A stretch of DNA of 64,000 nucleotides from Patescibacteria group bacterium (lineage in GTDB: Bacteria > Patescibacteriota > Saccharimonadia > UBA4664). The DNA is taken from positions 22,013 through 86,012 of the forward strand of contig JAQGHG010000026.1 in assembly GCA_028288925.1 (NCBI GenBank), read 5' to 3'. The notes beneath the pieces are model-generated. The model worked only from the letters and a program-made list of their open reading frames with translations. It ran no database searches and had not been told where the DNA came from. This document shows, piece after piece, positions 20,846-33,802 of this stretch; position 1 is the stretch's first letter; each line of letters opens with the position of its first letter. A program made the position numbers and the translations under genes.

Positions 20846-21583
20846 TTAAGGCCGCTCAAAGCGGCGAAAACCCTCGGTCAGCACTACTTGGCCACTCTTG
20901 TGAACCATCATGGCCTCGCATCCTTGGCTATGTAAAAACGCCAGGCCTGGCCGCCCCATACAAAACGCCGCTGTAGCCAGCGCGTCGACACGGTCGATCG
21001 TCGCGCCAACTACCGTCAGGCTCACCGGGTCGCCGACCATCCGGCCGGTGCGGGGATTATAAATATGCTCGCCCCGCTCGGCGGTCCCCGAAGTAGCCAC
21101 CGCGGCGTTCTTGAGATAGAGCAGCTTGGCCAGCTTACCCGGCTCGAACGGATTCGCGACCCCAATCGCCCAAGGGCCTCCGTCGGGGCCGTCACCGCTC
21201 ATCTGCATATCGCCGCCCGCGTTGATGCAGTAGCGCGTGATATACCGGCGGTCGAGCAGCCGTGCCGCCTGGTAGACCGCCCAGCCCTTCACGTATCCTG
21301 AAGGGTCGGTGTGGCCGTCCCATACCATATCGAAGCAACCATCCGTCAGCTTCTTTAAGCTCTCGCATTCATCCAAAACCTCCCGGACCTCTTCGCGGAC
21401 CTGGGATCGTTTGAGCTCGCCCCGGTTGAAACGGCTTATTTCGCTGTTCGGCTTGTAAGTGCTAAAGACCGCATCAACGTGGTGAAAATACGCGAAAACC
21501 TCATCAATAGCCTCGTCCAAAGCATTGGCGCCAAATGCCTCAACGGTGATTGGCATACCCATAATAATCCGCGTAGCTTTCAT
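20846..21583 (-). CDS. apbE: FAD:protein FMN transferase (ApbE family), copy 1
   Basis: N-terminal MKATRIIMGMPITVEA, ApbE-like core (DPSGYVKGWA, ATSGTAERG). ORF-track start at 21637 is probably too long. Confidence 0.75.
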   Translation of the reverse strand: MKATRIIMGMPITVEAFGANALDEAIDEVFAYFHHVDAVFSTYKPNSEISRFNRGELKRSQVREEVREVLDECESLKKLTDGCFDMVWDGHTDPSGYVKGWAVYQAARLLDRRYITRYCINAGGDMQMSGDGPDGGPWAIGVANPFEPGKLAKLLYLKNAAVATSGTAERGEHIYNPRTGRMVGDPVSLTVVGATIDRVDALATAAFCMGRPGLAFLHSQGCEAMMVHKSGQVVLTEGFRRFERP

Positions 21584-21607
21584 AACCCTATATTGTACAA
21601 TAATCAT

Positions 21608-23182
21608 ATGCAAGAAACGCCCCTGGAAGTAGCACAAAGGCTCCTCGCGGAAGGAAGAACCACCGATGAGATTAGAGTCGCACTCGGCGGCTCTGCCCCA
21701 ATCGCACCTCCGGCGCCAGAAACAGCTGCTCCGCCACCTCCTCCACCGGCCTCGGTTTCGTCGTCCCCGGCCATGTCCGCGCCAGCTCCTACTCCTGCTA
21801 CGCCACTGCCTCCTCCTCCTCCCGTGCCCGTGGCCTACCCTCAGCTTTTGAGCGCCAGGAGGCCAATACTGGCGATTCCGAAGCTTGGGTGGCCACTTAT
21901 TGCCATTATCTGCCTCATCCCATCCCTCGTTCTGTGCGTCGATGTGCCAATAGCCAACCGGTTTGGCGATATTCCGAGCGCGCTCTTGACCTTCGGAGAC
22001 ATCACAGGCGTAATCGGGCTGGCTACGTATGTCCTAAATCTCGTACTGGCGACCCGCCTACGCTGGCTGGAAGACTTGTTCGGTGGCCTCAACCGGGTGT
22101 TCGTAGCCCACCAGATCCTTGGAGGGTTGTCGCTCGTTACGCTGCTCATCCACCCCATGTTCTCGGCGGCTTCATACTACCCTTACGGCATCCGGGTGAT
22201 GTCGCATTTCTTCATTCCTCAGGTCGCCTATATAGGAACGGCCTTCGGCATAGTGGCGCTCACTATGATCATAGTGCTGCTCGTGCTTAGCTTCTACGTT
22301 AAGATCGGGTATAAGGTTTGGCTGCAAACGCACAAATACCTTGGTCTGGCCTACCTTCTGATAGGTTTGCATATACTTCTCACGCCCAACCGTATCACCG
22401 CCGACCCTTTCATAACCGGGTATCTCTGGGTCCTATTTCTAGCTGGCTTGGTCTCGTTTATATACCGGACACTACTGCCCAACATCTTCGTACGGAGCTA
22501 CCTGTACACCATTTCTTTGGCCGAGCGAAAAGGCGTTGGGGCGGTTGAAGTTACGCTAATTCCCGTCGACAAAATGATCCGCTTCAAAGCTGGCCAATTC
22601 ATCTTTATTGCCTTTGGCAGCGACGGCATATCGAGCGAATGGCATCCTTTCAGTATCTCTTCGGCCGAAACTTCTGGAAGGCTCATGATTGATGTGAAGT
22701 CGATGGGCGGATACACGGAGACTCTCACGCGTCTGCTTCCTCACATGATTGGTATGACAGCTCGCGTGGAGGGGGCTTATGGAAGGTTCTCGTATCGCAA
22801 CTTCGGCAACCTTAACCAGGTCTGGATAGCCGGCGGGATCGGAATCACGCCATTCTTGAGCATGGCTCAGACTCTCGGCACCGGGCCGTATAATGTCGAT
22901 CTCTACTATTCGGTAAAAACCAAGAGCGAGCTGATCGACCTCGATACGCTGGCGGTGCACCAATCGAACAACCCGGGACAGGTCTTCCGCGTGTTTCCCT
23001 TCGTGACGGACGCCTACAATACGTTCCTAAATGCTGAGATCATCGCGAGCAATAGCGGAGACCTCACTAAGCGCGATTTCCTCTTGTGCGGCCCACCGCC
23101 CATGATGCAATCAATAAAGAAACAGCTCATGACGATGGGTGTTAAAGCGAGTCAGATTCACACCGAAGAATTCTCACTCTAA
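21608..23182 (+). CDS. Ferric-reductase/NOX-type membrane flavocytochrome (FRD TM domain + FAD-binding + NAD(P)H-binding), Pro-rich N-terminus
   Basis: TM His pairs (AHQILGG, LIHPMF, THKYLG, GLHILL), HPFS FAD motif, GGIGITPF NAD(P)H motif. ORF-track start at 21479 would overlap ApbE. Met at 21608 preferred. Confidence 0.7.
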   Translation: MQETPLEVAQRLLAEGRTTDEIRVALGGSAPIAPPAPETAAPPPPPPASVSSSPAMSAPAPTPATPLPPPPPVPVAYPQLLSARRPILAIPKLGWPLIAIICLIPSLVLCVDVPIANRFGDIPSALLTFGDITGVIGLATYVLNLVLATRLRWLEDLFGGLNRVFVAHQILGGLSLVTLLIHPMFSAASYYPYGIRVMSHFFIPQVAYIGTAFGIVALTMIIVLLVLSFYVKIGYKVWLQTHKYLGLAYLLIGLHILLTPNRITADPFITGYLWVLFLAGLVSFIYRTLLPNIFVRSYLYTISLAERKGVGAVEVTLIPVDKMIRFKAGQFIFIAFGSDGISSEWHPFSISSAETSGRLMIDVKSMGGYTETLTRLLPHMIGMTARVEGAYGRFSYRNFGNLNQVWIAGGIGITPFLSMAQTLGTGPYNVDLYYSVKTKSELIDLDTLAVHQSNNPGQVFRVFPFVTDAYNTFLNAEIIASNSGDLTKRDFLLCGPPPMMQSIKKQLMTMGVKASQIHTEEFSL

Positions 23183-23217
23183 TCTGGTTCAAAAACGCGG
23201 TAGAGACCGTTTCGTTT

Positions 23218-23895
23218 TTATAGGATTCCTCCCGGAACTAAGAAATTTAAAATCGCGTACATCATTAAGAACAATACCAACCCCGTAATAGCATTCACGA
23301 TCCGGTTTTTAGCCGACTTAATAGCTGCTGGATCACCTATCGAAGTAATATATTGAATCCCCGCTACCACTAGCATAAGCATAATGACTCCACCTACAGC
23401 GCCGGCCAATAGCGTCAGAACCATTTTCAAATAAGCAACGATCGCTCCACCCGATCCAGGGGTATTATCTACGCAGCCCTTGCCCGCTTGGATTGGTAGC
23501 GCAATCTTTATAGTGCCCGTCGGGCATGTACTCGCGGCGGGCTTGGTAGGGTCTCCAATAACGACAGGAGCGGGCTTAGCCGCCGGTGCCGGCGCCGGCA
23601 CGGGTGCCGGCTTAGGCGCTGGAACCGGCTTGGGCTTGGGTTTGGGGGGCGGAGGTTTGGCCGTGCTTGCACTCACAATATCTACCGGACCAGCAACCAC
23701 TCCGATTGCTTCATACAGCAATTCACCGGCCAGTCCGCGCGCTGCATGGATGATGCCGGACCCATTATAAACCGCCGACGTCGTGATATTAGCTGGACGA
23801 GCAGACAGTTCATACCCCAGGGACAAGTAGCGTACCAACTCAAGTAACCCAATAATGGCCAAAGCCGTAGCGGTATTATGGGCAGCTTTCTTCAT
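23218..23895 (-). CDS. Small membrane protein with PKPKPxPAP linker and TrbC/VirB2-pilin-like C-terminal two-helix core
   Basis: N-terminal signal/TM, Pro/Lys/Ala repeat linker, C-terminal pair of hydrophobic helices as in T4SS pilins. Confidence 0.35.
   Translation of the reverse strand: MKKAAHNTATALAIIGLLELVRYLSLGYELSARPANITTSAVYNGSGIIHAARGLAGELLYEAIGVVAGPVDIVSASTAKPPPPKPKPKPVPAPKPAPVPAPAPAAKPAPVVIGDPTKPAASTCPTGTIKIALPIQAGKGCVDNTPGSGGAIVAYLKMVLTLLAGAVGGVIMLMLVVAGIQYITSIGDPAAIKSAKNRIVNAITGLVLFLMMYAILNFLVPGGIL
23560..23650. repeat. Coding low-complexity repeat (GGCGCCGG/GGCTTGGG units) encoding PKPKPKPVPAPKPAPVPAP linker
   Basis: Read directly. Confidence 0.5.
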
Positions 23896-23982
23896 ATAAT
23901 GCCAATGATATCACGCTTACGCTATAGACGGCGATAGCGGGGTATTACTATTGCAGACTAGCCGGCCATGCTACGCTTGTAG

Positions 23983-24738
23983 ATGAGGATGATACACGAC
24001 ACTAGATCCATAATGGGGATGCCCATTACTATTACTCTTGCATCCGGGGGCGACGCCAAGCTGCTAGATGAAGCTTTTGCCATCTTTACTGCCGTTGACC
24101 TGCGTTTTAGCACCTACAAACCCGACAGCGAGATCAGCCAGATTAATGCCGGCCGGCTTAAACCCCGGGGCTATAGTTCGCAGATGCGGGAAGTTCTGGC
24201 TAAATGCGCCGCTGCCAAGCAGGCTACCCATGGCTATTTCGACATCGAACACAACGGGCGCCTGGATCCCTCCGGTCTTGTCAAAGGCTGGTCGATTCAA
24301 AAAGTCGCCGACTTCTTAACCAGCCAGCACATACGCGACTTCTACGTAGACGCCGGTGGCGATATTGTAGCCGCGGGTCACAACTCCCAAGATGAACCTT
24401 GGTCCGTTGGGATCCGTCATCCCGAGCACCGGGACAAGAACGTAAAAATCCTATATCTTTCCGATCTCGCCGTCGCCACCTCGGGGACGTCCGAGCGCGG
24501 CGAACATATCTATAACCCACACTCACCTGATACACCCACCGGGCTCTTAAGCCTCACTGTTGTCGGCCCCACCATCGAAACAGCCGATGTGCTCGCCACC
24601 ACCGCTTTTGCCATGGGGGCAAAAACCGGTCTGAACTTTATCTCAGCTCAACCAGGCTATGAAGCCTTTGCCATTACAGGCAGCCTGTCCGCGATCTCTA
24701 CGAATGGCTTCGCTCGTTACCAGAGTAAGCCGGTTTGA
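23983..24738 (+). CDS. apbE: FAD:protein FMN transferase (ApbE family), copy 2
   Basis: IMGMPITI start, DPSGLVKGWS, ATSGTSERGEHIYNP. Paralog of 20846-21583. Confidence 0.75.
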   Translation: MRMIHDTRSIMGMPITITLASGGDAKLLDEAFAIFTAVDLRFSTYKPDSEISQINAGRLKPRGYSSQMREVLAKCAAAKQATHGYFDIEHNGRLDPSGLVKGWSIQKVADFLTSQHIRDFYVDAGGDIVAAGHNSQDEPWSVGIRHPEHRDKNVKILYLSDLAVATSGTSERGEHIYNPHSPDTPTGLLSLTVVGPTIETADVLATTAFAMGAKTGLNFISAQPGYEAFAITGSLSAISTNGFARYQSKPV

Positions 24739-25844
24739 ATTCCAAATACCCGCAATGGGTCAGTATTTAGTGTCGAGAAGTCCTCGCTAACATCATTTAG
24801 GCAGATCAGCTGCAAAAATGCGTCGAGAGTATCGCAAAAACCCGTCGCATGGCCCATGTCATGATAAAAGGTTACTAAATTCCTGACCGCCCCAGCCACG
24901 CAGTTCTCCCGCGCTTCCTGGGTAGGGCCGGTAGCGCAATCCGACGTAGCGCCCGCTGTGTCGTCCGAGTTCGTGCCTACCATCGCGTACCCCATGCTCT
25001 GATAACATGGCAACTGGTACTGCGACTCCAGGTTCGCACATTCGCGAAAGACCAAGTCGGCATCATCGTGGGCCAGACGCAAAGCATGGCCCGCCTGCAT
25101 TAAATAACACTGATACCGATAAACCTCACCGACTATGCCACACGGGTACATGGGATCATCAGCCTTTAAATACGCGGTGTCGTGATCGGTATCCATCTCG
25201 TTCATCTGGTTCTGCATGTAGACGCCGCTATAACACCACTCCTGCTCCCATGTGTTACCAGCCAGATCGCACAATCTAAGTGAAGCAAAGATATCGCCCT
25301 GCTTCACATCCATGATGCCGTGCCCCAAACCGTGCAGACAATTGTGGTGACTTAGCGAATAAGGTGCTTTGTTACGCACGCTCGTGCATACCAGAGGGAT
25401 TGCAGTCTCCAGATTGGCTGGCCCCAAACGTAACATGATCGATTCCATCACCCCGTGGTAATAGCCTGAGGAACAAAAATTATTACCCTTGGCGTAGGCA
25501 TCATCGATGTCCTTAGCATTATCGGCCGCGGTCCGCCCAATCGCGTGCATGATCTCGTGGCAGTTATCCCTGACCTGCCGGTCAAGCACATAAGCTGCTT
25601 CTACTCCAACAACGGCCGCCTTCACCCCTTTTGCGAGGGCCAATTCCTGGTAACGCTGCTCTAAACAAAACATATTCTCCGGGTCGTTGTCGCAGACGTA
25701 TTTGTTTGCAATTTCTAAACGAGCTGGCGGCAGGGTTAGTACCTGCGTTCGCACCGTAGCGGGGTGGGAAGCCAGGGACAATGCGGCACCTCCCATAAGT
25801 GCCATTACCGGAAGCACAAACCGCTTTAATTGCTCCAAGTTCAT
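24717..25844 (-). CDS. Secreted Cys/His-rich protein with HExxH (HEIMH) zincin-like motif
   Basis: N-terminal signal-like segment, about 20 Cys, HEIMHAIG, His-rich HHNCLHGLGHG. Confidence 0.4.
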   Translation of the reverse strand: MNLEQLKRFVLPVMALMGGAALSLASHPATVRTQVLTLPPARLEIANKYVCDNDPENMFCLEQRYQELALAKGVKAAVVGVEAAYVLDRQVRDNCHEIMHAIGRTAADNAKDIDDAYAKGNNFCSSGYYHGVMESIMLRLGPANLETAIPLVCTSVRNKAPYSLSHHNCLHGLGHGIMDVKQGDIFASLRLCDLAGNTWEQEWCYSGVYMQNQMNEMDTDHDTAYLKADDPMYPCGIVGEVYRYQCYLMQAGHALRLAHDDADLVFRECANLESQYQLPCYQSMGYAMVGTNSDDTAGATSDCATGPTQEARENCVAGAVRNLVTFYHDMGHATGFCDTLDAFLQLICLNDVSEDFSTLNTDPLRVFGIQTGLLW

Positions 25845-26896
25845 AACGCCGGGGGAGGTGCCAGCCGGTCGTACCTCAGGCTTGCCACAGGCTCAACCGG
25901 CAACATCACATTGCTGTAATTAACGTATCGCACCGTTACTGTTCCCCCGCCATCCTCATATTCTACCTTCGCTAAATGTTTGGTATCACGCTCGATATAA
26001 ACCTTGTTTTTGCCGTAATATCCAAAGCTGTCGAGAGCAAGTGAAATATCAGACTGGCTCAAGCCCATCAGAGCTGCCACTTTCAGATTGTAGGCCTGTA
26101 AATTGGCCGTATTGTAAGTTACCTCATACGCCAGCACAGGGTGGCCATCAAGAGTCTCGGTTGTAACTTTCTTAGGATCAAATTGGTACACTGGGGTCTT
26201 CTCCAGGAAGCTCATCAAATCCGCTCGCTGTGCTACTGAGAAATTCCCAAAAATGTAGGCGCCAAACAGTAAGTATCTCGGGTCAGTCATCTGCGACACT
26301 AATGTATTTGTTTCCACCGGCAGTACCCCGCCGCGCCGGACTTGTATCCACGCACCTAGATCAGCCCGCGGCAACAAGCTGTCGCTAGCCGAACGGTATT
26401 TGATGTAAGAGTTTTGCAGGCTTCCATAGGTACTGACTATGCTATCTCCATCCTGGCTTGTACGCTGGGCATCCGAAACGCTAACGCGAGGGTCACCCAG
26501 CCGGGTGACATCACTCAAGATAGTATGATTGCTCCCCGTGCTCTCCACTCTATGCTCGATTTTACCCGTCGCCAAAGCCAGCGATAGCGCATCACGAAAC
26601 ACTGTGCTCGCGTCCGCTACAGCCGATGGCGTCGGCGAAGCCGTGGCGCGATTGTTGGCATGGTTTTGTCCGAGCCAAACCCATGCTACTAGTCCGCCCA
26701 ATACCAGTAGCACGGCTAATACCAGCACAGCGACCAATGGTGCCTTTGAGCGTCGCGGAGCGGGATAAGGTGAAGGTGTGCCATACGTCGAAGCTGGATA
26801 CGGAGTAGGTACCGGCTCGCTAACCGATGGGGGAGGGGAGTTTGGATCGTTATACATGCTTAGCATCATAATAGCGCTTATGGTCCCATTGCTCAA
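25841..26896 (-). CDS. Single-pass membrane-anchored protein (Pro-rich cytoplasmic N-term, large extracytoplasmic domain)
   Basis: PPPSVSEPVPTPYP... then TM LVAVLVLAVLLVLGGLVAWVW. Confidence 0.4.
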   Translation of the reverse strand: MSNGTISAIMMLSMYNDPNSPPPSVSEPVPTPYPASTYGTPSPYPAPRRSKAPLVAVLVLAVLLVLGGLVAWVWLGQNHANNRATASPTPSAVADASTVFRDALSLALATGKIEHRVESTGSNHTILSDVTRLGDPRVSVSDAQRTSQDGDSIVSTYGSLQNSYIKYRSASDSLLPRADLGAWIQVRRGGVLPVETNTLVSQMTDPRYLLFGAYIFGNFSVAQRADLMSFLEKTPVYQFDPKKVTTETLDGHPVLAYEVTYNTANLQAYNLKVAALMGLSQSDISLALDSFGYYGKNKVYIERDTKHLAKVEYEDGGGTVTVRYVNYSNVMLPVEPVASLRYDRLAPPPAL

Positions 26897-26949
26897 AATC
26901 TGATTCTCTCAAACCAAGAGGGCCGTATTAACACCGGCGGTAGCGTAGG

Positions 26950-28071
26950 CTAAAGCACCAATCCGGATATGAGAATGCCTATGAGGCCGATGAAGAAAAG
27001 CACCAATGTGACACCTACAAGGGTTTTAACCGGTTTGGCATGCCCGACGCCAAGCAATTTCCGGATTCTCTGCCGCAGCAACAACATAACTAAAGCACAA
27101 GCCCCAATAAGACTACCGAAAGCCGCTAGCACCAGCAGCGGAGCGGGTTCAGACGAAGCCGCCAGTACGAGCCTCTGGCCGCCGGTAGCGCCCGTTACGT
27201 CCACAGCGTAGTCTTTTACAGTACCCTGGTAGGAGATACGCACCGCCTGTCGTCCAAGGGGTATTGAGGTAAAACTCGCGTCGCCATTCGAATCGGACTG
27301 GCGCGATTGCCCGGCCAGGGTTACGCCCGCGCTTACCAGGCTAAAGCCATCTTTGTCGGTCACATGCACTACCACGGCACCGTTTGCGGGCTGGGCCGAA
27401 GCGTCACTTGGACCAGTCACTTGCGCGATATCGCCGCTCTGCGGGCCGGTGCTCGGTGAGGGGCTGGCACTCGCGTCCGGAGTGCCCGAAGGCGAAGGGG
27501 TCGCGGATTGTCCGGTACCGGCCACGCCAGATCCTGACTTCGGTACCGGAGTTGATGTGTGCCCGGGAGCAGGTACCGGAGTAGCGGTATGCCCGGGCGC
27601 GGGCACTGGGGTGGGAGCCGGTGTATGAACAGGCTGAGGTGTTGGGGCGGGGGTATGAACGGGCACGGGTGTGGGCACGGGGGTCGGTACCGGCGTCGGT
27701 TTAGGCGTCGGCACCGGTGTGGGCTTGGGCGTTGGTGCCGGGGTGGGCGTCGGTGTGGCGCAGGGCGTCGCGCTGGTGCAGGCATTGGCATGTGAACTCT
27801 CGAAGGCGCCTAATGTCTCATTGATGAGCACCGTAACGGCGCTGTCAAAACCCGTAGTCGGTACGCCGCCCGGGTTTCGGATACCCTGGGATTGCTGAGG
27901 CTGCTTCACATCCTGTTGTCGCGCGAGCAGCTCGTAGATTATGGGCACACTACAAGCTGCTATTAGTATAAACGTGCCTCTTATGCGGCGACGCAGCAGC
28001 AACTGCTGCTTCTTCTTTCTCATACCCAGAATAATACCATGCCCACGCCCAAACGCGGTTGATTTGTACAA
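26950..28071 (-). CDS. Cell-surface protein with long PT/PV-rich tandem-repeat linker and Ig/CarboxypepD-reg-like domain
   Basis: TPxP repeats ([15 protein letters not shown]...). C-terminal hydrophobic segment followed by a basic tail (RQRIRK). Confidence 0.5.
27540..27775. repeat. Coding tandem repeat (GGCACCGGTGTGGGC-like units) encoding PT/PV-rich linker
   Basis: Visible periodicity in DNA and protein ([15 protein letters not shown]...). Confidence 0.6.
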
Positions 28072-28110
28072 GTTCAGCTAGTTTTCAGCTATGATTGATA
28101 ATATTACAAC

Positions 28111-28560
28111 ATGAAAAAGTTAATCTTGGCGGCCTTTGTAGTCGCGACATTCATTATCTACAGCGTCCACCAACACCAGGACGGCTCCGCGGCCGTGGTG
28201 GCGCCGGCGCGTACAAGTACCACTCCGACGCCTGCTTCATCGCCCGCCCCGGGGTCCACGCCTGCGGCGGCCATCGCCTATAAAGACGGCCGGTACACGG
28301 GAGACGCGGCGGATGCCGTATACGGCAATATCCAGGTGGCGGCTACCATCCAAAATGGCAAAATTACCGACGTGGAGTTTCTGCAGTATCCCAACGACCG
28401 CAATACGTCGGTGCGTATCAACACCCAGGCCATGCCGTATCTCAAGCAAGAAGCGATTTCAGTGCAAAGCGGCCACGTCGATATCGTCTCAGGCGCCACC
28501 GATTCGAGCCAGGCTTTCATCCAGTCGCTGAGCTCCGCCCTAGCCAAAGCGCAGTCGTAG
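28111..28560 (+). CDS. FMN-binding-domain (FMN_bind) extracytoplasmic protein, predicted ApbE substrate
   Basis: Signal/anchor MKKLILAAFVVATFIIYSV. Flavinylation motif DIVSGATDS (Thr at nt 28498-28500). Confidence 0.75.
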   Translation: MKKLILAAFVVATFIIYSVHQHQDGSAAVVAPARTSTTPTPASSPAPGSTPAAAIAYKDGRYTGDAADAVYGNIQVAATIQNGKITDVEFLQYPNDRNTSVRINTQAMPYLKQEAISVQSGHVDIVSGATDSSQAFIQSLSSALAKAQS

Positions 28561-30071
28561 TGAATATCGTCGACCTGCTGCTCGACCGCGTCACCATGTA
28601 CCGCCTGATGCTGTACTACCTGCTCGCGTTGCTGGGCGCCGCAATGCTCCTAGGCGCTGTGGGGTACGCGGCGTACAACCCGGTGGCCGTCACGCTGTCG
28701 GCTGGGTACCTTACTCTAGTATGCTGGGCCGCGAACAAGGCATTTGCCTACATTCTGAAAGTGCCGGTAAACCCGGAGTCGTCGCTCATCACCGCTCTCA
28801 TCCTGGCTCTCATCATCACGCCGCCGACTCACCTCCAGGGCTACATATTCCTGACGGCCGCCGCTGGTTTGGCGATCGCGTCCAAGTATTTGCTAACCAT
28901 TCGCAATCATAATATCTTCAACCCGGCCGCCATCGCGGTCGCTTTAACGTCGCTCGGCGCCGGCGAATCCGCTAGCTGGTGGGTGGGCAGCGCCGTACTC
29001 TTGCCCTTCGTGATAGTTGGCGGGGTACTGGTGGCGCGCAAAATCCGCCGTGGCCAGCTGGTGGCGAGTTTTCTGGTGGTTTCATTGGTGATGGTGGCCG
29101 TCATCGCCGCGATGAGCGGCGGCAACGTTGCCGTTACGCTCCAGAAGATGCTCCTCAACTCTTCGCTATTCTTCTTTTCCTTCGTGATGCTCACCGAGCC
29201 CCTCACCGCGCCCACTACCCTGGTCAAGCAGCGATGGTATGGCGCCTTGGCCGGGCTGCTCTTCCCTCCGCAGATACACATCCTGAGCCTCTATTCCACG
29301 CCGGAGCTGGTGCTGGTCGTGAGCAATCTGGCTTCGTACCTAATGGAGCGAAAATCCCGGCTCGTGTTGCGTCTTTCTAACATCCAAAAGACCGGCCCCA
29401 ACCTTGCCGACTTCATCTTTACCCCAAGCCACAAACCAGCGTATCTTCCCGGTCAATACATGGAGTGGACGCTACCGCATGCCAAGCCCGACGATCGCGG
29501 CAGCCGCCGGTACTTCACCCTAGCATCCTCGCCCACCGAAGATAATCTCCGGATTGGAGTAAAGTTCTATCCCAAAGGCAGCAGCTACAAACAAGCCTTA
29601 CTAAAGCTTGATGCCGGTACGGCGGTAGCGGCCGGCCAGCTCGGCGGCGACTTCGTGCTGCCCAAGGATCCGGCCGAGAAGCTCGCCTTCATCGCCGGCG
29701 GCATTGGCGTCACACCATACCGGAGCATGATGAAATACCTGCTCGACACACGTCAGGAGCGTGACATCACGCTCCTGTACGCGGCCCACACCAGCGGCGA
29801 GCTGGCCTACACCGATGTCTTCGCGGCCGCCCGGCAACAATTTGGCGCAAACGTAGTCTACGTACTCGACGCCCCCGGCACCTTATCCGAAGCCGCCCGC
29901 CAGGGACCCATCACCACGGCCCTCATAAAGGCCGAAATACCGGACTTCCGAGAACGCGTTTTCTTCGTCTCCGGCCCCCGCCCCATGGTGACGGCTACGG
30001 TAGCCGCGCTCAAAACCATAGGGGTCCACGCTAGCCGTATCAAGACTGATTTCTTCCCTGGATACGCCTAG
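28560..30071 (+). CDS. Membrane oxidoreductase: NqrB/RnfD-like TM domain (HNIFNPA) fused to FAD/NAD(P)H-binding ferredoxin-reductase-type module
   Basis: RNHNIFNPAAIA motif as in NqrB/RnfD. C-terminal RRYFTLASSP (FAD RxY[ST]) and GGIGVTPY (NAD(P)H). Confidence 0.6.
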   Translation: MNIVDLLLDRVTMYRLMLYYLLALLGAAMLLGAVGYAAYNPVAVTLSAGYLTLVCWAANKAFAYILKVPVNPESSLITALILALIITPPTHLQGYIFLTAAAGLAIASKYLLTIRNHNIFNPAAIAVALTSLGAGESASWWVGSAVLLPFVIVGGVLVARKIRRGQLVASFLVVSLVMVAVIAAMSGGNVAVTLQKMLLNSSLFFFSFVMLTEPLTAPTTLVKQRWYGALAGLLFPPQIHILSLYSTPELVLVVSNLASYLMERKSRLVLRLSNIQKTGPNLADFIFTPSHKPAYLPGQYMEWTLPHAKPDDRGSRRYFTLASSPTEDNLRIGVKFYPKGSSYKQALLKLDAGTAVAAGQLGGDFVLPKDPAEKLAFIAGGIGVTPYRSMMKYLLDTRQERDITLLYAAHTSGELAYTDVFAAARQQFGANVVYVLDAPGTLSEAARQGPITTALIKAEIPDFRERVFFVSGPRPMVTATVAALKTIGVHASRIKTDFFPGYA

Positions 30072-30623: not shown

Positions 30624-33029
30624 TCAAATATTATCCAAGATTTCGGCTAAATCAACACCCCTACCCATCACCGGCTTCCACAAATCGCCAACCTCAGCCA
30701 CCCGCTTGGCCATATTCTTAATCGTAAACTGGCCCGGGTCGAGCTTCGGCGTCACCTCGTCCCAGCGCAGGGGAGCGGAGACGGTGGCATCGGGCATCGG
30801 CCGCGCACTGTACGGCGCCGCCAAGGTTTGGCCTTCGCGGTTCTGCAGGAAGTCCACATAAATCTTGTGCGGGCGCTTGGCCGGCATGCGCTCAACACTG
30901 GTGAGCTTGGGCTGGCGTTTATGAACTTCCACCGCCAGCAAATGTGCGAAATCCTTGGCCTGGTCGTGCGTGTACTTGGCCCCCAGCGGAATATAAATAT
31001 GAATACCCGTCTTGCCCGACGTCTTGGGATAGCACGGCACCTTCCAATCGTCGCACACCTGCTGCACGGTCAGCGCCACCGTCACCACATCCTGGAATGT
31101 CACGCCTTCCGGGTCCAGATCGATCACCGCCCAATCCGGCCTATCTAAGTGTCGCACGCGGGAGTTCCACGGATTAATCTCGATACTCCCGAGCTGCACG
31201 GCATACAGCAGCGTCTCCAGCGTGCCGCCCACCATCCAGTGCAGCGTCTCACCCGTAGAATCGGAATAAATATCCACCGCCGGCGCCCAATCGGGCAAAT
31301 GCTCCATATTTTTCTGGAAAAATCCTTTGTCACCCACGCCGCCGGGCTGGCGCAGCAGCGAGAGGGGACGGTCTTTGAGGTAGGGCAGTATGTACGGCGC
31401 CATCGTCCGGTAATACTCGATCAGATCGCCTTTGGTGTAGCCGTGCTTAGGGAAGAATACTTTGTCGAGATGGGTGAATGTTGGGGTCACAATAGTCTCC
31501 TTGGCGATTTCGCGATGAACATCTCGCGGGTCTTTGTCGGCGCGCAAGCCTTCGTACACCGGATGGCGCATCGAGCCGTCGGAAGTCCACTCGGCGAAGC
31601 TCATCTCGGCCACCACCTCCGGCCGCGTCCAATGCACCGGCGCGTTGGGACGGGGCTCTTCGCGGAAGGGCGAAGTTTTGCGCTCCAGCTTCTCCAGCCG
31701 GTCGCGCAAGGTTCGCCGCTGCTCGTCCGCAATCCCGCCGCCCGAGTGGCCCACGTACACCAGCTCGTCGCCCTCATACGCGCCGAGCAGCAGCGAGCCG
31801 AGGTACTCGCGCCCGCCGCGCGGTTCGGTAAACCCGCCGATCACCACCTCTTGGCGCAGGTGAGTTTTGGCCTTGAGCCAATCGTTGCCGCGGCGGTCTT
31901 CGCGGTACGGGCTGTCGGCGCGCTTGGCCACCACGCCCTCCAGGCCCTGCGCGCGCATACGCTCAAACAGCGCCTCGCCCTCGGTGGCGATGTGGTCGCT
32001 GTAGCGGATCGGGCCATCGGCCGGTACCAGTGCGGCCAGTAGCTGCTTGCGTTCGTGCAGCGGCATGCTCCGCAGATCGCGGCCGTCGCACCACAGCAGG
32101 TCAAACACGTAGTAGGCCAGCACCCCCCGCGGATTTTGCCGCCACTGCTGCAGCCACTCGAAGTGCGGCCGGCCGGCCTCATCGAGCACCACGATCTCGC
32201 CGTCCACGACCACGTCGTGCCCAAACGCCTGCAACGCCTCGTGCACCGGCGGGTAATGCGTGCTGAAATCCTGGCCGGTGCGCGAGTACAGCCGCGTCTG
32301 GCTGCCGTGCTTGCTAGCGACCGCCCGGTAGCCGTCCCACTTGATCTCAAACAGCCAGCCCTCGCGCTCAAACGGCTGCTCCACCAACGTACACAGCATG
32401 GGATTGACCCGCCACGGCTCAGGCCGCTCCGGGTACGCCGAAAGATCCGGCAGCTTGTTGTGCGCGCCTAGCTCATCGACCTTTTTGCCGCTGCGCACCG
32501 ACCCGTCCTGCTCGGTCACGCTCGCCTTGGTGGCGTATTCGTCACCTTTCTTTACCAGTAGCCAGGCCTTATCGTCCGGCCCGTGCATCTTGATGAGCGC
32601 GAACTCGCCCCGCAGCTTTGTACCGTGCAGAATAAACGTGACATGCCCCTCGGCCAACCCCTTGCGCAGCTCCGCCGCCGGATCATCACTCGCCTGGCGG
32701 GGTTCATACGTCCCCTCGTCCCAAATAATTACATTCCCTGCGCCATAGCTCCCCTCCGGAATTACACCCTCAAACTTCCGGTACTCGTAGGGGTGATCCT
32801 CCGTCATCACGGCCAAATGCCGGTCCTGCGGATTCATCGACGGCCCCTTGGGCACCGCCCAGCTCTTGAGTACGCCGTCCAGCTCCAGCCGGAAGTCATA
32901 ATGCAGGCTCGAAGCGTGATGCTCCTGCACCACAAACGCCAACGGCCCCTTGCCGGAGCGCTTTACCTGGCCCTTCGGTTCGGGCGTGCGGTCAAACTGC
33001 CGCTTGGCGTGATAATGCTCCAGGCTCAT
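30624..33029 (-). CDS. ligD: Multidomain ATP-dependent DNA ligase D (phosphoesterase - ligase - polymerase/primase)
   Basis: N-terminal KRQFDRTPEP phosphoesterase motif, ligase KxDG (EIKWDGYR), C-terminal LigD-Pol domain. 801 aa. Confidence 0.85.
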   Translation of the reverse strand: MSLEHYHAKRQFDRTPEPKGQVKRSGKGPLAFVVQEHHASSLHYDFRLELDGVLKSWAVPKGPSMNPQDRHLAVMTEDHPYEYRKFEGVIPEGSYGAGNVIIWDEGTYEPRQASDDPAAELRKGLAEGHVTFILHGTKLRGEFALIKMHGPDDKAWLLVKKGDEYATKASVTEQDGSVRSGKKVDELGAHNKLPDLSAYPERPEPWRVNPMLCTLVEQPFEREGWLFEIKWDGYRAVASKHGSQTRLYSRTGQDFSTHYPPVHEALQAFGHDVVVDGEIVVLDEAGRPHFEWLQQWRQNPRGVLAYYVFDLLWCDGRDLRSMPLHERKQLLAALVPADGPIRYSDHIATEGEALFERMRAQGLEGVVAKRADSPYREDRRGNDWLKAKTHLRQEVVIGGFTEPRGGREYLGSLLLGAYEGDELVYVGHSGGGIADEQRRTLRDRLEKLERKTSPFREEPRPNAPVHWTRPEVVAEMSFAEWTSDGSMRHPVYEGLRADKDPRDVHREIAKETIVTPTFTHLDKVFFPKHGYTKGDLIEYYRTMAPYILPYLKDRPLSLLRQPGGVGDKGFFQKNMEHLPDWAPAVDIYSDSTGETLHWMVGGTLETLLYAVQLGSIEINPWNSRVRHLDRPDWAVIDLDPEGVTFQDVVTVALTVQQVCDDWKVPCYPKTSGKTGIHIYIPLGAKYTHDQAKDFAHLLAVEVHKRQPKLTSVERMPAKRPHKIYVDFLQNREGQTLAAPYSARPMPDATVSAPLRWDEVTPKLDPGQFTIKNMAKRVAEVGDLWKPVMGRGVDLAEILDNI

Positions 33030-33031
33030 GG

Positions 33032-33802
33032 CTACTCCTTGGCGAGGCTAGCTTTGAGCGCGCTCATCAGATCGTCGGCCGTAGCCTGCGGTTCATGCTT
33101 GTGCTTCTTTGCCACCGGCTTCTCACCCTTAATCTTAGCCTTGATGCGCTCCTCTAGCTCCTGTGCATACACATCGGCGAAATCCTCAGGCATGAATGGC
33201 TTCGTCTCTTGCTTGATCAGCTTGAGCGCCACTTCCAGCTCGCGGTCAGTTACCTGTTTGTCGGTCGGTACGCCCAGATCGCTGCCGGACCGTAAATCGC
33301 TCGGATACCGCATTTGCTCCAGCACCAGCAAGCGCCCCACCGGCTTAATCACCGCCAAATGCTCGCGTTCGTGCATCACGTATTTGGCCAGCGCCAGCAT
33401 GGCCGATTTCTTCAACGCCTCGCGCAGCAAAGCGTAGGCCTTTTCGCCACCCTTCACCGGCTCCAAATAATACGGCTTATCGAAGTAGCGGATGTCGATA
33501 TCACCTTCTTTCACGAACTGCTGGATATCCACCGTCGAAGACTTTTCGGCTGCCAATTCATCAAGCTGCTCGGGCGTAAACACTACGTATTTATCGTCCT
33601 CATACTCATAGCCCTTCACGATATCGTCCCAATCCACCTCTTTGCCCTCGTCGCGGCAAATGTGCGCGTACCGGATAGGGGAGTGGTCGTCCTTGTGCAG
33701 CATGTGGAACTCAATACCCTCACGAGTCTCCACGGCGCTAAACATCCGCACCGGGATGTTCACCAAGCCAAAACTAATCGAGCCGTTCCATATTGGTCGC
33801 AT
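33032..33802 (-). CDS. ku: Ku protein (NHEJ DNA-end binding)
   Basis: MRPIWNGSISFGLVNIPVRMFSA N-terminus typical of bacterial Ku. 3-nt gap to ligD. Confidence 0.85.
   Translation of the reverse strand: MRPIWNGSISFGLVNIPVRMFSAVETREGIEFHMLHKDDHSPIRYAHICRDEGKEVDWDDIVKGYEYEDDKYVVFTPEQLDELAAEKSSTVDIQQFVKEGDIDIRYFDKPYYLEPVKGGEKAYALLREALKKSAMLALAKYVMHEREHLAVIKPVGRLLVLEQMRYPSDLRSGSDLGVPTDKQVTDRELEVALKLIKQETKPFMPEDFADVYAQELEERIKAKIKGEKPVAKKHKHEPQATADDLMSALKASLAKE

Follow-up and report, generated by a model that had tools for sequence, protein, structure and literature searches.

A nine-gene flavinylation locus of a Saccharibacteria/Patescibacteria genome probably holds two separable NAD(P)H-using electron-export modules

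Our analysis indicates that the genes between positions 20846 and 30071 of a 64-kb stretch of DNA from a Saccharibacteria/Patescibacteria genome (the window, i.e. the whole stretch that was analysed) form two separable redox modules and not one nine-gene system. We consider it probable that these are two independent NAD(P)H-using electron-export modules, each having its own ApbE-type transferase. The first module is built around a fusion of an RnfD/NqrB-fold membrane domain with an FNR-type flavodehydrogenase domain and includes an FMN_bind subunit, the second around a flavocytochrome designated here as FRD. The nine open reading frames of the span were checked against the window sequence and all nine were present at their coordinates. 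They are given below with their Pfam assignments, which are above the gathering score unless marked otherwise.

20846-21583, minus strand: ApbE1, 245 residues; ApbE (PF02424), E 1.6e-44
21608-23182, plus strand: FRD, a NOX/"MsrQ-like" flavocytochrome; Ferric_reduct (PF01794), FAD_binding_8 (PF08022) and NAD_binding_1 (PF00175)
23218-23895, minus strand: pilin-like gene; T4SS_pilin
23983-24738, plus strand: ApbE2, 251 residues; ApbE (PF02424), E 3.5e-45
24717-25844, minus strand: Cys/His-rich protein; no Pfam match
25841-26896, minus strand: anchored protein; no Pfam match
26950-28071, minus strand: Pro/Thr-rich Ig-like membrane protein; CarboxypepD_reg, weak and below the cutoff
28111-28560, plus strand: FMN_bind subunit, NqrC/RnfG-like; FMN_bind, E 2.4e-9
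28560-30071, plus strand: RnfD/NqrB-FNR fusion, 503 residues; NQR2_RnfD_RnfE (PF03116) and NAD_binding_1 (PF00175)

The domain searches agree with most of the original prediction, which had been made from the sequence alone: the two ApbE paralogs within 9 kb are where it placed them, and the ApbE, FMN_bind, Ferric_reduct, FAD_binding_8 and NAD_binding_1 domains that it proposed to scan for were all recovered above the gathering score. The FAD and NAD(P)H motifs expected in both oxidoreductases are likewise in place, namely HPFS (22643-22654) and GGIGITPF (22832-22855) in FRD, RRYFT (29505-29519) and GGIGVTPY (29697-29720) in the fusion. Its statement that the locus does not correspond to any named system is not supported. 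As judged from the domain content, both modules are members of classes already defined by genomics and the locus is a further example of them, with a rearranged operon, which adds no new class.

The first of these classes, the "NQR/RNF-like systems", comprises PF03116 and PF00175 fusions in flavinylation clusters, and 127 such clusters, in the main from candidate phyla radiation bacteria and Actinobacteria, were reported (Meheust et al., 2021, eLife, PMC8238504). The fusion protein of the window carries an N-terminal PF03116 and a C-terminal PF00175 domain in one polypeptide. ApbE and FMN_bind genes lie within five genes of it, and the product of the FMN_bind gene, which overlaps the fusion gene, is anchored, in agreement with the operational definition of a cluster, according to which at least one gene should code for a signal peptide or lipidation site. 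A two-subunit Nqr/Rnf-like complex of this kind has been modelled for Ktedonobacter racemifer and a one-way electron flow from NAD(P)H to the outside was proposed for it; in this class the transmembrane subunit is devoid of the flavinylation threonine of NqrB/RnfD while the FMN_bind subunit keeps its motif (Huang et al., 2024, mSystems, PMC11334425). The first module shows exactly this distribution. The second class, the "MsrQ-like systems", is defined by PF01794 genes, often with PF00175, in flavinylation clusters that "typically" include an FMN_bind gene (PMC8238504). FRD contains PF01794 and the start codons of FRD and ApbE1 are 24 bp apart in a head-to-head arrangement, which places the pair within the operational definition of Meheust 2021.

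Residues 1 to ~262 of the fusion make up the membrane domain, which has the RnfD/NqrB fold, and residues ~265-503 the FAD/NAD(P)H domain, which has an NqrF-like fold. The 12 residues that follow its GTG start are conserved among homologs, and this start shares one base with the stop codon of the FMN_bind gene (TAGTG), in line with the translational coupling of the two genes suggested earlier. The FMN_bind protein consists of an N-terminal signal anchor, a Pro/Thr linker and the FMN_bind domain, and it also gives weak NCBIfam matches to PplA and RnfG. Its acceptor motif DIVSGAT, with Thr130 encoded by the ACC codon at 28498-28500, is located precisely where the original prediction had put it. 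Among 66 homologs of this subunit the [ST]GA[TS] motif is kept in each distinct variant listed and an N-terminal hydrophobic helix is present in 56; the charge bias corresponds to the N-in/C-out orientation, as predicted for the window's protein, in 46 of 55, and neither a twin-arginine (Tat) motif nor a lipobox was found in these homologs.

The membrane domain of the fusion, by contrast with NqrB and RnfD, has no [ST]GA[ST] motif and no flavinylation threonine. A segment of ~75 residues, which in E. coli RsxD carries DGISQAT, is absent from it; in hhalign and in the profile search against the PDB the alignment of the RnfD-like domain was confined to its C-terminal half. The loop QSASWW was considered as a variant flavinylation site and rejected: although 177 of 197 sequences keep S139, the loop has neither the Asp nor the Gly of the motif, and the WWVG piece matches "WQWVN" of RsxD by inspection, a position that comes after the true site of RsxD.

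The fusion protein has a match of 100% identity in an NCBI entry from a metagenome-assembled genome of a "Patescibacteria group bacterium", and its family is large. A word-index search returned at least 5795 homologs and a scan of species-representative genomes confirmed at least 475 relatives, those among the matches listed belonging mostly to Candidatus Saccharibacteria/Saccharimonadales, other Patescibacteria and Chloroflexota. We fetched the surroundings of the fusion gene from 80 genomes (L001-L080), which together with other loci gave 90 related loci for tblastn searches. A tight operon of the order FMN_bind-ApbE-fusion was found in 70 of the 80 genomes and the order ApbE-FMN_bind-fusion in 4, while the arrangement of the window, an FMN_bind-fusion pair with no adjacent ApbE gene, was seen in none. 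The three closest relatives (L084, L085 and L086; 73%, 67% and 60% identity) all keep the ApbE gene between FMN_bind and the fusion. Therefore, the arrangement in the window is derived.

The ApbE gene normally found inside the operon appears to have been moved and not lost. ApbE1 and ApbE2 are 46.5% identical, both score above 150 bits against PF02424, and both have the ApbE fold with its catalytic histidine; in ApbE1 this is the His of GEHIYNP (codon 21065-21067), which aligns with the residue of Vibrio cholerae ApbE that differs between the structures 6nxi (H) and 6nxj (G). In a neighbour-joining tree ApbE2 is located at the base of the clade of operon-type ApbEs, while ApbE1 falls into a separate clade made up of FRD-adjacent ApbEs, grouping in the tree, and also by tblastn, with those of L086 (71% identity), L087 and L089 (57%). 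By its position in this tree ApbE2 is the putative displaced counterpart of the ApbE of the Nqr/Rnf-like operon. It now lies 3.4 kb upstream of FMN_bind, with three genes of the opposite strand in between, and is the fifth gene upstream of the fusion.

Some further features of the relatives' operons were recorded. An OmpR-type response regulator and a histidine kinase are encoded directly upstream of the operon in 27 of the 80 genomes (~2.5-3.4 kb upstream of the fusion), MacB-type ABC transporter genes are near it in 13-20 and the iron transporter VIT1 in 7; none of the three is near the operon in the window. The VIT1 neighbours are a weak hint at iron reduction and the two-component systems a weak hint at regulated expression. 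One Saccharimonadales genome (L029, 10001-11503 and 14435-15934) has two full FMN_bind-ApbE-fusion operons 3 kb apart, whose fusion proteins are 52% identical.

The second module is organised around FRD, which is composed of an N-terminal module with a Pro-rich linker, a ferric-reductase domain of six transmembrane helices (TM) with two bis-His heme sites, and a FAD and NAD(P)H dehydrogenase domain. PF01794 was detected with 45.3 bits (cutoff 28), and the catalytic core aligned over its full length with SpNOX, the NADPH oxidase of Streptococcus pneumoniae (8qq7, 8qt6; E 2.6e-31). The bis-His domain foreseen in this gene was thus found: H168, H182, H242 and H255 (codons 22109, 22151, 22331 and 22370) align with the His pairs of TM3 and TM5 of SpNOX, and the four heme histidines, HPFS and GGIGITPF are each at least 95% conserved among 115 FRD homologs. 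With six TM, the TM3/TM5 His pairs, HPF[ST] and GGxGxxP all present, FRD is a predicted member of the NOX family.

The N-terminal part (residues 1 to ~128, 21608-21990) starts with a conserved module of ~27 residues, ETxLExVQRLxAEG[RK]STxEIRxAL, and a variable linker rich in Pro separates this module from TM1. The public annotation of the gene (P0121, 452 residues) starts downstream and omits this module; the long N-terminus is backed by homologs that align from residue 1. In the homologs P0137, P0138, P0141, P0150 and P0151 the module is duplicated.

The head-to-head ApbE/FRD pair, with 18-45 bp between the genes, was found in four distinct relatives (ApbE 57-71%, FRD 60-68% identity). The trio of ApbE, FRD and a Pro-rich protein gene recurs in L086, L087/L088 and L089/L090, and the remaining flanks differ. 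In four relatives the Pro-rich homolog is convergent with FRD and immediately downstream of it (L086 11612-12679, L087 11918-12559, L089 11662-12519). In the window the corresponding gene is 3.8 kb away from FRD and stands divergently beside FMN_bind; it codes for an Ig-like (CarboxypepD_reg-like) domain with an N-terminal anchor and two C-terminal transmembrane helices, and is 46% identical to the L086 homolog over residues 21-372. It is possible that this protein is an accessory of the FRD module, as its synteny suggests. We also considered it as a flavin acceptor, since it contains DVTGAT (residues 291-296, 27184-27201); the L086 homolog has VQGTAGG at this place, and the match is due to chance.

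In the mechanism that would follow, the FAD of the fusion's cytoplasmic FNR-type domain would be reduced by NAD(P)H, the electrons would cross the membrane via the RnfD/NqrB-fold domain, presumably with the help of a non-covalent flavin, and arrive at FMN phosphoester-linked to Thr130 of the FMN_bind subunit at the outer face, from where they would go on to a final acceptor. This FMN would be installed by ApbE2. In the second module electrons would pass from NAD(P)H to FAD, to the inner heme b and to the outer heme b, and exit to an external acceptor, which may be O2, Fe(III) or a flavinylated FMN_bind protein; ApbE1 would be a lineage-specific neighbour of the FRD gene. We infer cofactor occupancy, the direction of electron flow, the terminal acceptor and the assignment of each ApbE to its acceptor from what sequence, fold and synteny provide directly, i.e. 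the NAD(P)H and FAD motifs, the heme ligands, the RnfD/NqrB fold, the acceptor threonine and the catalytic histidine of ApbE. The general logic of an electron conduit from cytoplasmic NAD(P)H through membrane heme and FAD to a flavinylated extracytoplasmic acceptor, on which the original prediction was built, is supported, because both the domain content and the published models of the classes (PMC8238504, PMC11334425) fit it.

The modules may be set against better known systems. The first one shares with the Nqr/Rnf-like complex the NqrB/RnfD-like and PF00175 fusion, the anchored FMN_bind subunit, an ApbE in the cluster and the occurrence of the class in candidate phyla radiation bacteria, but differs in that its ApbE is outside of the operon and that the linked ApbE has no leader. 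As compared with Na+-NQR and RNF, a one-way instead of a semicircular path of the electrons is predicted, and the site at which NqrB/RnfD carries covalent FMN has been deleted. A tblastn search of the 64-kb window with E. coli RsxA, RsxB, RsxC, RsxD and RsxG (the query set did not include RsxE or the NQR subunits) found an RsxD-like stretch only, Pfam detected no NQR/RNF subunit domain beyond NQR2_RnfD_RnfE on the nine genes, and there is no evidence for ion pumping at the locus. The flavin-based extracellular electron transfer system of Listeria (FmnB, PplA, Ndh2, EetA/B) resembles it in having a transferase of the ApbE type and, at the surface, an FMN_bind flavoprotein fed by cytoplasmic NADH; however, the membrane step through Ndh2, quinone and EetAB is missing here, and whereas FmnB and PplA are lipoproteins, the ApbE of this locus is leaderless and the FMN_bind protein is signal-anchored. 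The second module shares with MsrQ-like clusters and SpNOX the six-TM di-heme PF01794 domain with its four histidines and the C-terminal FAD/NAD(P)H domain, and with the clusters also the adjacent apbE gene. It is distinguished by the extra N-terminal module and Pro-rich linker of ~130 residues, by an FMN_bind gene that is six genes off and by the syntenic Pro-rich Ig-like membrane protein, while SpNOX itself has no ApbE partner.

Several points weigh against the reading of two exporters with their own transferases. In the literature no experimental work on either class was found, whatever the organism. ApbE is absent from 5 of the 9 FRD loci examined, within 6-10 kb of FRD homologs of 27-55% identity. 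Thus the ApbE-FRD pairing is lineage-specific, and the link between ApbE1 and FRD may be synteny without function. Moreover, the single FMN_bind gene of the window belongs to the first module, and in L087 and L089 there is no FMN_bind gene within 10 kb of the ApbE-FRD pair. The FMN_bind protein is thus only a candidate substrate of ApbE1. Finally, the ApbEs linked to the modules are leaderless while the acceptor is predicted to be outside, and flavinylation outside of the membrane, as it is usually pictured, does not fit with this.

One would argue on the grounds of the first points that FRD is a stand-alone NADPH oxidase or ferric reductase and that ApbE1 is its neighbour merely by inherited gene order, serving the FMN_bind subunit of the first module or a substrate elsewhere. 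SpNOX does work alone (PMC11031084), and besides the loci without ApbE or FMN_bind mentioned above, this explanation is favoured by the FRD sequence itself. We tried FRD as its own flavinylation substrate and rejected this, as [ST][GAS]A[ST] is unconserved in the 115 homologs and "SAAS" follows H182 in some of them only. However, the head-to-head pair is kept in four distinct genomes with differing flanks and the FRD-adjacent ApbEs form a clade of their own. Conserved pairing together with a separate clade suggests that there was selection for the linkage. We regard a stand-alone FRD as a serious but lesser possibility.

The second explanation to be weighed concerns the place of flavinylation. 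The leaderless state of both ApbEs had escaped the original prediction. Neither ApbE1 nor ApbE2 has an N-terminal hydrophobic segment, signal peptide or lipobox; both begin at the first beta-strand motif and neither is of the canonical extracytosolic kind, i.e. a lipoprotein or secreted protein. The same holds for their relatives: the module-linked ApbEs are compact proteins of about 240-250 residues that begin at the first strand of the fold, a hydrophobic N-terminus is found in none of 64 operon-linked ApbEs, which start within a few bases of the preceding FMN_bind stop, and among the 150 closest representatives of ApbE clusters at 50% identity (P0361-P0510) a hydrophobic leader was present in 0 of 102 classifiable sequences, 48 being unclassifiable. 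In Saccharibacteria, other Patescibacteria and Chloroflexota these leaderless ApbEs are found next to modules of the Nqr/Rnf-like and the NOX type. With the transferase predicted to be inside and the FMN_bind acceptor predicted to be outside, we have an indication of a topological mismatch. In the accepted route of maturation ApbE acts outside of the membrane on exported FAD.

The published definitions demand a signal peptide of only one gene per cluster and do not discuss leaderless ApbEs (PMC8238504, PMC11334425). The cytosolic ApbEs known so far serve cytosolic substrates only, such as the fumarate reductase of Klebsiella pneumoniae, and a truncated ApbE was able to flavinylate NqrC in the cytosol of E. 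coli (PMC12052999). The Klebsiella ApbE is likewise without a signal peptide, but its substrate is a soluble cytoplasmic enzyme, whereas the sole candidate substrate at our locus is predicted to be extracytosolic. It could be that FMN is attached in the cytoplasm before the FMN_bind subunit is inserted or translocated, or that the FMN_bind domain lies on the cytoplasmic side and the complexes do not export electrons at all. The absence of leaders and the two precedents speak for this explanation. On the other hand, there is no description of a domain being exported after its flavinylation, the signal anchor of the FMN_bind proteins is of the typical N-in kind and a Tat motif is absent from them, and the published AlphaFold-Multimer model has the subunit docked at the outer face (PMC11334425). 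We hold this explanation to be rather unlikely. As a tentative proposal of its own, on which we would not insist, the compact leaderless ApbEs might act in the cytoplasm and flavinylate FMN_bind prior to export, or else ApbE1 might have an unrecognised NOX-linked substrate; if true, either case would amount to a maturation route for extracytosolic flavoproteins unlike the accepted one.

That all nine genes constitute one integrated, undescribed extracellular electron transfer system, with the pilin-like and Cys/His-rich proteins as conduit or terminal parts, is very improbable: the nine genes do share 9 kb, L086 (the closest FRD relative) has both redox modules within 8 kb and one homolog of the Cys/His-rich gene (L091) is 1.6 kb from an ApbE gene, but in most genomes the modules are separate, FRD being absent from the 10 kb around the fusion gene in all 80 genomes. 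The two modules of L086 have quite different genes between them, for ABC transporters and MarR; near a second homolog of the Cys/His-rich gene no flavinylation gene was seen, and tblastn over the 90 related loci retrieved no homolog of the pilin-like, the Cys/His-rich or the 25841-26896 protein. The single system of the original prediction, with the pilin-like and Cys-rich proteins among its parts, is not sustained by this comparison, and these three genes are interleaved passengers outside of both modules.

Saccharibacteria are epibionts with reduced genomes and few known outlets for reducing equivalents. The presence of two neighbouring NAD(P)H-fed exporters suggests that reduction outside the cell, be it of iron, oxygen or host-derived acceptors, matters to these organisms, and no paper that links either class to Saccharibacteria was found. 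The two modules offer compact and defined targets for the first biochemistry on two classes known only from genomics, and they raise the topological question of where ApbE acts in these lineages. In addition, the number of homologs found here makes the fusion family far larger than the clusters first reported.

Of the passengers, the Cys/His-rich protein (24717-25844) was characterised further. It is a secreted member of a family of over 1000 proteins, mostly from Saccharibacteria, that has no Pfam domain, 16 invariant Cys and the invariant His96, His100, His130, His171, His175 and His328. The HExxH motif reported for it is indeed present as HEIMH (25545-25559), but only the two histidines are invariant and the Glu is not conserved. 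The AlphaFold2 model (pLDDT 87) shows a helical repeat fold with no close solved relative. A zincin-type HExxH metalloprotease was rejected on account of this fold and of the unconserved Glu. The gene is co-transcribed with that of the anchored protein at 25841-26896, the two overlapping by 4 nucleotides.

A scan of metagenomes with FRD gave three loci. In L096 (6001-8048) a distant FRD homolog of the short form (44% identity) overlaps the start of a gene for a 244-residue protein with a Cyt-b5 domain, which suggests another partner for NOX-type enzymes in some Saccharibacteria.

A promoter scan of the locus gave 6 sites as against 6.8 in shuffled sequence, and with no excess it is uninformative on operon structure. 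The flanks are unrelated to the modules: an NmrA-like NAD(P)H-binding protein is encoded upstream, and an ArsR-family regulator, LigD and Ku downstream. The latter two (30624-33802, minus strand) follow the locus directly and make up a non-homologous end joining pair in which LigD is complete, with phosphoesterase, ligase and primase-polymerase parts, in a bacterium with a small genome.

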